A stretch of 45,081 bases of DNA from a virus (Duplodnaviria; Heunggongvirae; Uroviricota; Caudoviricetes): IMG/VR virus record IMGVR_UViG_2563366897_000006, one strand, 5' to 3'. Shown here piece after piece: positions 18,001 through 21,000 of the stretch (positions are counted from its first letter, which is position 1; every line of letters begins with the position of its first letter). A program made the position numbers.

Positions 18001-21000
18001 CAGCGGAATGACAAAACCAAAAATATTAATGAGGATAAATACATGCCAGTCCATCAACTCAATGGGCTGGCCTGCCAGTGCCCCTTTTACATGAGGCACA
18101 AATTTGTAGAAATTCAGGATGTGCTGCGCACGGGGTTCACTGAAATAAATCCCCCGCTTTTCGCCGTACTTCAGATCATCAAGAAAACGCTGGCAGGCCA
18201 GGCGGACAAATTCGCCAGCAACAATTTCTCCTGCAACAACACGTTCGGCGTAGCGGATCCCGTCAGCCACTTTTGCCATCAGTCTCTCGCTTTTAAAAGC
18301 TCTGCCAGCGGATCAACATTATCCGGTCCGGCGGTATTTACTTTTGCCCGGCTTGCCGGTGACATACCAAATTCTGCAAGCATCGCCCGGATCCGCTTCC
18401 AGGCATCCGCTTTCATCGCAGCAGCCGGGTGTGCCTTAATCAGCACATCACCGTTCTGCGTTTCCGAGCGGTAGGTGTACCCCTCAACATCGAGTGTTTC
18501 GCAGTGATGCCGGTATTCGGTATAGGCTTCCACCAGTAGCTCAAGCGCACGCGCATCAAGCTGAGAAATGATCCCTTCCGCATTCAGCTCTTCCGCCATT
18601 CGCCTGAACCAGTACTTCCCCTGCGCCCCTAAATGTTGCGGAATTTTAGGGAGACCTTTTTCATCCTTTTTAGCGGTTTTTTTGAGGTCTTTAACTGGCC
18701 GCTTTGAGGGGTTGCCTCGTATCAAATGCAGGCGTGGCGGGATTTTCGGGGGTCCAGACATAATCGGTTTTACCTATCAATCATTTAATCACATTCCAAA
18801 AAAAAGTTTTCGAACCTGCGGCGATGCGAGGAAAGGTCAGGCGGCGGTACTGAACAGCCAGGGTTGCAGAGATTTGACCCGCCCCTCCCCTGCAGATGGG
18901 AGCTGTTATCAATTGATGCGTTCGCGCGCTGTTTTTGCTTTATGACAGGGCCAGCACAGACTCTGCAGGTTACTGTCTGCATCCGTGCCACCATGAGCTT
19001 TCGGAATGATGTGGTCCACAGTTCTGGCTTCAACGGCTCTCCCATTGCGCAGGCAGTTCTGACACAGATGATTATCACGCTTCAGTATGCGCGCACGTAT
19101 GGCATCCCATTTCGAGCCATAGCCACGCTGGTGGCGGCTCAGTCCGCGTTGATGCTGTACCCATCCTTCGCCACGATGTTTATCGCAGTAACCAGAACTG
19201 TCTGTGGTTGTACCTGCACATCCACGCTTACGGCAGGCGCGTGGGATTAGTGCTGGCATGTTTCGCCCTTATATAAATCAAAGGTGACCTGCATTGAGTA
19301 TCTCCATGGAATAGATTTGCTGCTGATATGAGACAGATCAATAGACTTCATGAGCCAACGGGTGTAGATATTACTTTTTACTTCAGAGGGTTAACTCATG
19401 GATATTAAAGATAAAATCAATACCATTTTGTTATGTGACATTGCCATCCACCTAGGTATCGAAACTGATATTGATCCACAGCTTGTTAAATATGCTGTGT
19501 CATCTGGTAATGATTGGGTTATCAAGGCCGAATATTCACATTTGGATGTTGACGAACCAAGTAAAGAAGATCGTGATTTTGTTACTGCTGTCTTGAATAT
19601 GTATCGCGGACTTTCCAATGCTTTCAGGAAACTTAGTGATGACGAGCAAAAAGAATTAGTCCGTGACCATCATCTAAAAATACATGATGGGGCAATTCAG
19701 CTCCCAGGTTTCGACGGTAATAATGAATGCGATTACTTCAGTATCATTGAGGCATATCAGAAAATTGATCGCTTCCCCGAACAGAAACAGCCCATTGCCA
19801 ATACTCATTCACGTACAGAACATCTCTATAACGCAATGCTTGATGAGTTTAAGAAAATTGACGCTGTAAATCGAAGCTGGGATTTATCGAAGGAAGAACT
19901 GGCATCCATTCTTTCCACAGCTCCACGCAGTTTCTAAGTGCTTTAGGCGGGTTTCCAACCCGCCTTATTATGCTCGTATATAGAGAAGGAAGCACCCAAA
20001 TTAACCAGCGCGGATTTCTTTTCCTCAATACGGCTGTTAAGTTCAGCAACTGCATGCGGGCGTATGGCCTCAAGAAAAGCACTATATTGATAGGCAGACT
20101 GGATTGTCACACCAAGCCCTGCACCACTTTCCAGTATACCTTTCTGTCGCTGTAGCTCTTTCATCTCGTTATAGATGTAATGTGCGTTACTTAGGTTTTC
20201 TACGTTCACGCCCTAAGTTCTTCCTGCAGTTAGCCTGCACTGATTTGTTATGCGCCAATATGTCCCGCTTCGTCTGTTGCATTATCATAAGTAATAGCGT
20301 AGGTTGACACCTTGGCTCTCTTTCGCCACCGGCGAATCTTTAGCGGATTATCCTTGGCCGGTTTTTATCTGAGACATTGCTCACGAATGTATAGCTGTGC
20401 CCCTTCCAGTTGCTTCTGCATCGTCATCAACCGTTCTCTGAGGGTGAAATAATCCCGTTCAGCGGTGTCTGCCAATCTGGGGCTGGTTGCATTATCCACG
20501 CTGGTGGGTCCGGTGGCTTCACGCACGGCTGCGGAGCAACTGGCATTGACCCGCAGGCGCTTACGACCAGCGGCAACATCAGCGCGCAGAGTTTCATTTT
20601 CAGCTTTCGCATTGGCTAATTCTCTCGAGTACTTTGCATCGAGCGCAGCAACATCACGCTGACGCTGCTGCATGTCAGCGATGGTGGCGGTCAGCTGCTT
20701 CAGCTCACTGACTTTTTTATCACGCTGTTCTTTGTAGGTGATGGCGTTATCACGGTAATGATTGACCGCCCACGACAGGCAGACGATGATGCAGATAACC
20801 AGAGCATAAATAATCGCGGCGACTCTGCTCACTGATCTATTCCCCAACAGGCTAATGCGCTTTCTTGGTCACGACGAATAACCTGTCCATAGCAGTTATT
20901 TGAACGTATGCGGCAATCGCGCCCACCATCTTTTATCCACCAGCGAATCGCCTCGCATGCGCCCTTACGATCACCAGCATTCAGCCGCTTATAAAACGTC

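Follow-up and report, generated by a model that had tools for sequence, protein, structure and literature searches.

The 45,081-nucleotide stretch of DNA analysed here at its full length (IMG/VR virus record IMGVR_UViG_2563366897_000006; hereafter the window) holds a lambdoid E. coli prophage with its late genes on the minus strand. Between the lysis cassette and the packaging module of this prophage a single open reading frame (ORF) of 179 amino acids is read from the plus strand, antisense to both flanking sides (Rz on one, HNH/terS/terL on the other), and encodes a protein of the YfbU family (UPF0304). The gene is part of a discrete foreign unit of 723 bp, the YfbU cassette (19260-19982), whose guanine-plus-cytosine (GC) content is 0.396 compared with 0.514 and 0.518 in the 5 kb on each side; it is the sole 723-bp stretch below 0.42 GC in the late-gene half of the window. 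The ORF is preceded by a ribosome-binding site and followed, 8 nucleotides past its stop codon, by a hairpin with a U-rich tail, for which RNA folding gave -15.9 kcal/mol (z = -3.7 versus shuffled sequences). This hairpin is a predicted intrinsic terminator closing the YfbU transcription unit, and it overlaps the last 8 codons of a convergent 88-amino-acid ORF. The spacer in front of the gene presumably holds its promoter, and no Rfam-type RNA family matched anywhere across 18700-20500. The protein has no hydrophobic segment and is predicted to be soluble and cytoplasmic. An earlier note on this DNA had described the interval as locally AT-rich, with a 179-amino-acid ORF carrying its own ribosome-binding site and a strong hairpin terminator, and all of these features were recovered. 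We consider it very likely that the 19260-19982 segment is a self-contained cargo unit with a YfbU-family gene, a bor-type moron placed where the lysis and packaging modules meet.

Membership in the family was established with profile searches. The protein scored 46.3 bits with Pfam PF03887 (YfbU/UPF0304), for which the gathering cutoff is 25 (E 6.5e-12, with residues 46-172 aligned to positions 46-164 of the 166-position profile), and failed the NCBIfam equivalog of chromosomal YfbU, NF003936 (34.8 bits versus a cutoff of 90); it is therefore a family member and not the chromosomal orthologue. A profile of 29 clade members matched the PDB entries of E. coli YfbU, 1WPB and 4LR3, at E 4e-9, and a PDB search with the single sequence yielded nothing relevant and missed YfbU. 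The resemblance to YfbU, which had been proposed from the motifs MYRGL, LPGFDGNNECDY and ANTHSRTEH, is thus confirmed by the hidden Markov models, and the three motifs stand in the translation at conserved family positions. The protein has the two-domain helical fold of E. coli YfbU (1WPB) and shares with it (b2294) the G-F-D...E...Y core and the M-Y-x-x-L helix motif. The two differ in length (179 versus 164 amino acids), are about 15-16% identical and occupy different settings, the one being prophage cargo between HNH and lysis genes and the other a core gene beside yfbV-ackA, placed in K-12 between hxpA and yfbV. In PHROGs the protein is assigned to phrog_6084, a family of unknown function. 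The whole YfbU family comprises 2136 clusters among 1.84 billion representative proteins, about three of which correspond to the clade found in the window.

Within this clade the alignment contains 11 invariant and 23 nearly invariant columns. To compare mobile and chromosomal copies, we used an alignment of 127 members (prophage clade, n=37; a sister clade of about 183 amino acids, n=35; plasmid forms, n=6; chromosomal clade, n=49). Prophage, plasmid and chromosomal members all have G104, F105, D106 and Y144 without exception, and E110 almost without exception. The mobile-element copies share G-F-D-G-N-N-E and N-[ST]-H, which in the window protein are G104-F-D-G-N-N-E110 and N135-T-H137 (window 19707-19727 and 19800-19808), followed by the conserved Y144, whereas the chromosomal clade has G-F-D-A-A-T-E and N-[AS]-Q, with A in 49/49, T in 48/49 and Q in 48/49 members at the positions of N108, N109 and H137. 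Thus these three residues mark the mobile copies, since they are shared there and replaced in the chromosomal clade. Judged by this conservation pattern, they might form a working site that is specific to the mobile copies and absent from the housekeeping gene.

The cassette boundaries are sharp on both sides. On the left, the likeness to other phages with the HNH gene stops exactly at 19259, the HNH start codon; on the right, similarity to Citrobacter phage Chris1 starts at about 19983 and continues through the 88-amino-acid ORF. The AT-rich interval had earlier been drawn as 19260-20360, and this holds for 19260-19982 and not for 19983-20360, where the GC content is 0.45-0.48 and a separate mosaic block begins. 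Because of the Chris1 similarity and an outer-membrane spanin (o-spanin) remnant beyond 19983, the interval is to be read as two mosaic blocks, the first alone being the YfbU unit. The convergent minus-strand ORF is present as described but does not belong to the unit: it is a small late-strand backbone gene, phrog_5415, with 86% nucleotide identity to its counterpart in Chris1 and a dN/dS of about 0.35. In Chris1 the gene encodes 76 amino acids and is followed by a different hairpin of its own and then by the terminase region, with no YfbU gene. In the window it runs 12 codons past its normal stop into the YfbU terminator hairpin (19943-19982), so that it encodes 88 instead of 76 amino acids because the junction of the YfbU cassette removed its stop codon. 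A two-gene convergent system of YfbU and the 88-amino-acid ORF was considered and rejected, as phrog_5415 occurs without YfbU in Chris1 and the small ORFs in other genera are unrelated.

The o-spanin remnant comprises 33 codons, and its translation (QQTKRDILAHNKSVQANC) matches a 45-amino-acid ORF of Chris1 and a 62-amino-acid o-spanin of Enterobacter. The same region gives matches of 50-57 nucleotides with 86-90% identity to 17 Klebsiella phages, because the remnant is of the Chris1/Klebsiella type. Located downstream of the intact E. coli-type Rz/Rz1 pair, it is the scar of a recombination between two different lysis cassettes and marks the second of the mosaic joints, with Rz on one side and the phrog_5415 gene on the other.

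Features of the YfbU cassette and its flanks in the window.
Feature	Position	Strand	Basis
TerL	16522-18279	-	Same strand as HNH; RefSeq annotation
TerS	18279-18761	-	Pfam Terminase_4 88 bits; same strand as HNH; RefSeq annotation
HNH endonuclease, left flank, HK97-type packaging module	18909-19259	-	Pfam HNH 60 bits, RefSeq annotation
Spacer upstream of the YfbU-like ORF, running from the HNH start codon, GC 0.39	19260-19397	+	Sequence, GC content
Ribosome-binding site GAGGG	19386-19390	+	7 nucleotides before the ATG
YfbU-family ORF, 179 amino acids, ATG start	19398-19937	+	ORF call, Pfam
Hairpin resembling an intrinsic terminator	19945-19965	+	9-bp G+C-rich stem, 3-nucleotide loop, then UUAUUAU
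Small late-strand gene phrog_5415, 88 amino acids	19943-20209	-	phrog_5415 E 2e-38 over residues 1-76
o-spanin remnant, 33 codons	20187-20288	-	Translation matches Chris1 and Enterobacter ORFs
Rz i-spanin (inner-membrane spanin), right flank, last gene of the lysis cassette	20365-20847	-	Pfam Phage_lysis 168 bits, RefSeq
Rz1, embedded within Rz	20427-20612		ORF list

Of 5426 complete E. coli genomes, 225 carry the YfbU-like gene, always on the chromosome, with at least 95% nucleotide identity and in the same local context; the carriers include extraintestinal pathogenic, avian pathogenic and Shiga-toxin-producing strains. Homologues among deposited phages were restricted to three distinct phages (4 of 50,697 records), and the viral structure predictions in BFVD offered nothing better than one marginal match (E 1.8e-03, template-modelling (TM) score 0.65). 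Public assemblies contained homologues at 50-83% identity in six other prophage architectures, all in the same slot. These homologues lie beside lambda-type Nu1/GpA terminases (in Enterobacter, Providencia and a third host), beside Terminase_4/TerL with a different lysis cassette, beside Terminase_4/TerL with a Ser/Thr kinase and a PP2C phosphatase alongside, and in a Terminase_2/Terminase_6 headful packaging module; a conjugative plasmid of Kosakonia carries a further, solitary copy in the neighbourhood of a RES-Xre toxin-antitoxin pair. Every prophage homologue has the lysis cassette on one side and the small terminase (or HNH) gene on the other and points against both, even though these modules are not related from one prophage to the next. 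Past the stop codon, 6 of the 7 other loci inspected have an inverted repeat, each of unrelated sequence; the Kosakonia plasmid copy has none. Four of these repeats (loci L002, L006, L022 and L027), folded as RNA, gave hairpins of -9.9 to -23.6 kcal/mol, and in L025 a short inverted repeat is visible past the stop codon. The GC content of the gene is below that of its flanks in all 7 other loci inspected. Furthermore, a comparison with the 83%-identical homologue gave proportions of nonsynonymous (pN) and synonymous (pS) differences of 0.10 and 0.79, the latter saturated, from which we conclude that the protein is under strong purifying selection.

The slot itself is polymorphic among close relatives. 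Phage vB_EcoS-640R1 shares the HNH/terminase and lysis genes and has bor at precisely this place, on the opposite strand, and in phage Evi the slot is empty and Rz abuts HNH; the equation of the position with the bor slot of lambda, made in the earlier note, therefore stands. Like the lambda morons bor and lom, the YfbU unit sits on the downstream side of Rz, ahead of cos/terminase, and is read against the late operon, and with bor it shares an own terminator, a deviant base composition and presence/absence polymorphism. The products differ, Bor being an outer-membrane lipoprotein that gives serum resistance and the window protein being a predicted cytoplasmic protein of unrelated sequence and fold. 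No conserved partner gene accompanies the YfbU-like gene, the small neighbouring ORFs being unrelated between genera. When the partner family of the 183-amino-acid clade was compared with the window by tblastn, short chance-level matches were obtained, the best at E 0.013 over 31 residues in an unrelated locus. No partner gene is thus present, which does not imply that the protein functions autonomously. In the Superficieibacter prophage (L025:5990-7488) the YfbU-like gene shares its slot with genes for a Ser/Thr protein kinase and a PP2C phosphatase, which brings to mind the Stk kinase by which prophage 933W excludes phage HK97.

In the wider family, YfbU genes are carried by plasmids of Enterococcus, Acinetobacter, Xanthomonas, Kosakonia and Raoultella and by a P2-like Yersinia phage. 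On small Acinetobacter plasmids the gene adjoins an abortive infection (Abi) family gene. Of the 80 genomes sampled for the sister clade of about 183 amino acids (L033-L112), 28 have a homologous gene of about 165-200 amino acids immediately upstream in the same orientation; further instances of the pair are L029:6486-6995 with L029:7001-7552 and L018:5486-5998 with L018:6001-6552. A hydrophobic segment is present at the N terminus of most partners, and no partner belongs to a Pfam family. The two-gene arrangement occurs widely in Proteobacteria, with members in E. coli P0047 and on a Raoultella plasmid, and in E. coli it lies inside a phage-like replication module with DNA polymerase A, a PDDEXK exonuclease, a single-stranded DNA (ssDNA)-binding protein and an SNF2 helicase. 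The window protein shares with this clade 26-32% identity, the GFDGNNE / N-S-H signature and carriage by mobile elements; it differs in that its own clade has no upstream partner gene, the upstream neighbour being HNH on the other strand. Resistance plasmids of Enterococcus faecium very often carry a 172-amino-acid YfbU-domain gene (at least 146 PLSDB plasmids), with resolvases, insertion sequence elements and a Fic gene nearby; on plasmid p3 of E. faecium Aus0085 (L016:5998-7035) the gene directly 3' of it encodes a 170-amino-acid protein with an N-terminal hydrophobic segment. The family reaches into the archaea, where the small extrachromosomal element of Methanocaldococcus jannaschii has an annotated YfbU family protein (NC_001733.1:14674-15024).

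One member of the family offers a functional precedent. Kamadhenu (pUCCL624_130), a single gene on a lactococcal plasmid, encodes 180 amino acids with the PF03887 domain (Grafakou et al., NAR 2024, PMC11381338). It was experimentally shown to be an anti-phage system with an Abi-like phenotype that acts post-injection (PMC11381338), and all phages that escaped it were altered at G22 of a Sak-like single-strand annealing protein (SSAP) (PNAS 2025, PMC12184496). No other YfbU family member has been assigned a definite role in phage biology. Hence the description of the YfbU/UPF0304 family as one of unknown function, given in the earlier note, is not fully accurate with regard to anti-phage activity (PMC11381338, PMC12184496) and still applies to biochemical activity. 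The window protein resembles Kamadhenu in size (179 versus 180 amino acids), Pfam family, single-gene organisation and carriage by a mobile element, and differs in host (Enterobacteriaceae versus Lactococcus) and carrier (prophage moron versus plasmid); the Abi-like phenotype and the escape through the SSAP (Sak G22) are features demonstrated for Kamadhenu only. The annotation of the gene is not new, as RefSeq already names it "YfbU family protein", and a mobile single gene with a YfbU domain has a published precedent. New here are a member in a different host and carrier and a cleanly defined cassette, with a putative function.

By analogy with Kamadhenu, we tentatively propose, with a probability of about 45%, that the YfbU-like gene is a lysogen-expressed single-gene defence against superinfecting phages. 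The protein would be made in the lysogen from its own transcription unit and would act after the DNA of a superinfecting phage has been injected. Its action would be linked to the recombination function of the incoming phage, an SSAP, with a possible role for the conserved GFDGNNE...H...Y residues, and the infection would be stopped, probably at the cost of the infected cell. During the lytic growth of the prophage itself, Q-antiterminated late transcription would run antisense through the unit, and such read-through would damp expression of the YfbU-like gene and thereby spare the phage's own cycle. The carriage of the wider YfbU family by plasmids and phages, a mobile-element lifestyle, speaks for this reading of the cassette, as do its discrete foreign character, the variable slot, the position kept beside unrelated flanks, the terminators of its own and of its homologues, the purifying selection and the lack of a partner gene. 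E. coli yfbU was also reported to be required for cells to die upon DNA damage (PMC2646832).

Several observations weigh against this proposal. The likeness to Kamadhenu consists of Pfam family, size, fold, single-gene organisation and mobile carriage, not of measured identity, and identity between YfbU clades is just 25-32%. The PADLOC-DB release of 2023, which predates Kamadhenu, gave no match for the protein. In the literature we found no paper mentioning the accession, no expression or phenotype data for the gene and no biochemical activity for any YfbU protein. A consensus sigma-70 scan of the 138-bp spacer detected no plus-strand promoter, and a permissive scan of the same spacer gave weak matches only, TAGACT-17-TAGATA (ending 27 nucleotides before the ATG) and GTGACC-17-TGGAAT (85 nucleotides before). 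Among the neighbours of distant members (146 proteins, 39 loci) there were integrases and transposases together with TIR (twice), FRG (twice) and HerA (once), which indicates a mobile-element setting and a modest defence signal. Finally, the "death gene" phenotype of E. coli yfbU, its listing among the genes needed for mazEF-dependent death after DNA damage (PMC2646832), comes from a single study. A paper on Gifsy-prophage resistance was discarded as a precedent, as it concerns an unrelated protein. The PLSDB matches listed for different YfbU family members by tblastn included no Lactococcus record.

Other functions are conceivable for the same cassette. A lysogenic-conversion gene could alter host physiology if the divergent paralogue joined or poisoned the host YfbU oligomer and thus changed the response to DNA damage or stress, for instance by delaying the death of a damaged lysogen, to the benefit of host and prophage. 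The host-fitness gene bor in the same slot of a sister phage would fit such a role, as would the fact that the yfbU-dependent death signal, DNA damage (PMC2646832), is also the signal that induces lambdoid prophages. Moreover, the crystal structures of YfbU show a large assembly (16 chains per entry), the protein is described as a large complex (PMC11381338), and the YfbU fold is kept over 152 residues. We nevertheless regard this role as unlikely: at about 15-16% identity to chromosomal YfbU mixed oligomers are not expected, N108, N109 and H137, present in the prophage and plasmid clades and absent from the chromosomal one, point to a distinct activity, and the sole mobile-element member tested so far is an anti-phage system.

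The gene might also serve the phage's own cycle, as a counter-defence function or a modulator of host recombination and repair early after infection or induction, expressed from the cos-proximal end of the phage chromosome. Among the lambda-type relatives the gene indeed begins within about 100-250 bp of the cos region, at the extreme right end of the packaged genome, and the sister 183-amino-acid clade is co-oriented inside a phage replication/recombination module. However, in all prophages examined the gene runs against the late operon, it is closed by a terminator of its own, it is dispensable because sister phages lack it, and both its homologues among deposited phages and its fold among viral structure predictions are nearly absent, so that we hold a role in the phage cycle to be distinctly improbable. 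There is very little to recommend the idea of a decaying or functionless hitch-hiker kept by linkage to the HNH/terminase module. The near clonality of the E. coli gene, always in one local context, and an unbroken homology with one relative from HNH through the YfbU-like gene would agree with linkage, but full-length ORFs are intact in several genera down to 50% identity, and the position is kept beside non-homologous terminases. The signal of selection (the pN and pS values and the conserved columns given above) contradicts a hitch-hiker, which is largely refuted.

If the Kamadhenu-like defence proposed here for the prophage gene were taken further, the mobile YfbU proteins (the 179-amino-acid prophage form, the 183-amino-acid form with its partner, the Enterococcus, Acinetobacter and Xanthomonas plasmid forms, and Kamadhenu) could make up one broad, largely unrecognised anti-phage family, with GFDGNNE...N-[ST]-H...Y as the working site, phage recombination (SSAP-ssDNA) as the trigger and chromosomal yfbU as a domesticated relative without those residues. 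We regard a unification of this breadth as rather doubtful.

The remainder of the window shows further features of the prophage. The minus-strand late genes are ordered holin, YdfR/DUF1327, lysozyme, Rz/Rz1, HNH endonuclease, P27-type TerS and TerL. Genes for three tRNAs (Arg, Arg, Ile) separate the antiterminator Q gene from the holin gene (about 22438-22687, minus strand), as called from the RefSeq annotation of a near-identical (99.9%) stretch in strain JNEC-KY173. A second low-GC stretch (30350-32700; GC 0.39-0.42) comprises the gene for a CI-like repressor and adjoining genes for helix-turn-helix domain and hypothetical proteins, and may hold more cargo at the immunity region. The prophage ends with the integrase (about 36.2-37.5 kb). 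Directly after it, at about 36190-45081, follows an unrelated second prophage-like element with a serine recombinase, baseplate and tape measure proteins and a very low GC content (0.35-0.40 over 38.3-44.4 kb).

The structure of YfbU was solved more than 20 years ago; N108, N109 and H137, which set the mobile copies apart from the chromosomal gene, are immediate targets for mutagenesis. Should the gene prove to have no part in defence, the cassette would be one more lambdoid moron of limited interest. If it is a defence gene, a 0.7-kb cassette present in about 1 of 25 sequenced E. coli strains would shape which phages infect them, with a bearing on phage therapy and on prophage competition because the carriers include pathogenic E. 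coli. The Kamadhenu finding would then be extended from dairy lactococci to Enterobacteria, providing a tractable E. coli model for the function of the YfbU fold. Furthermore, if the broad anti-phage family were real, it would supply a molecular basis for the old and contested "death gene" phenotype of yfbU and place a single-gene, lysogen-encoded abortive-infection system in about 4% of E. coli genomes.

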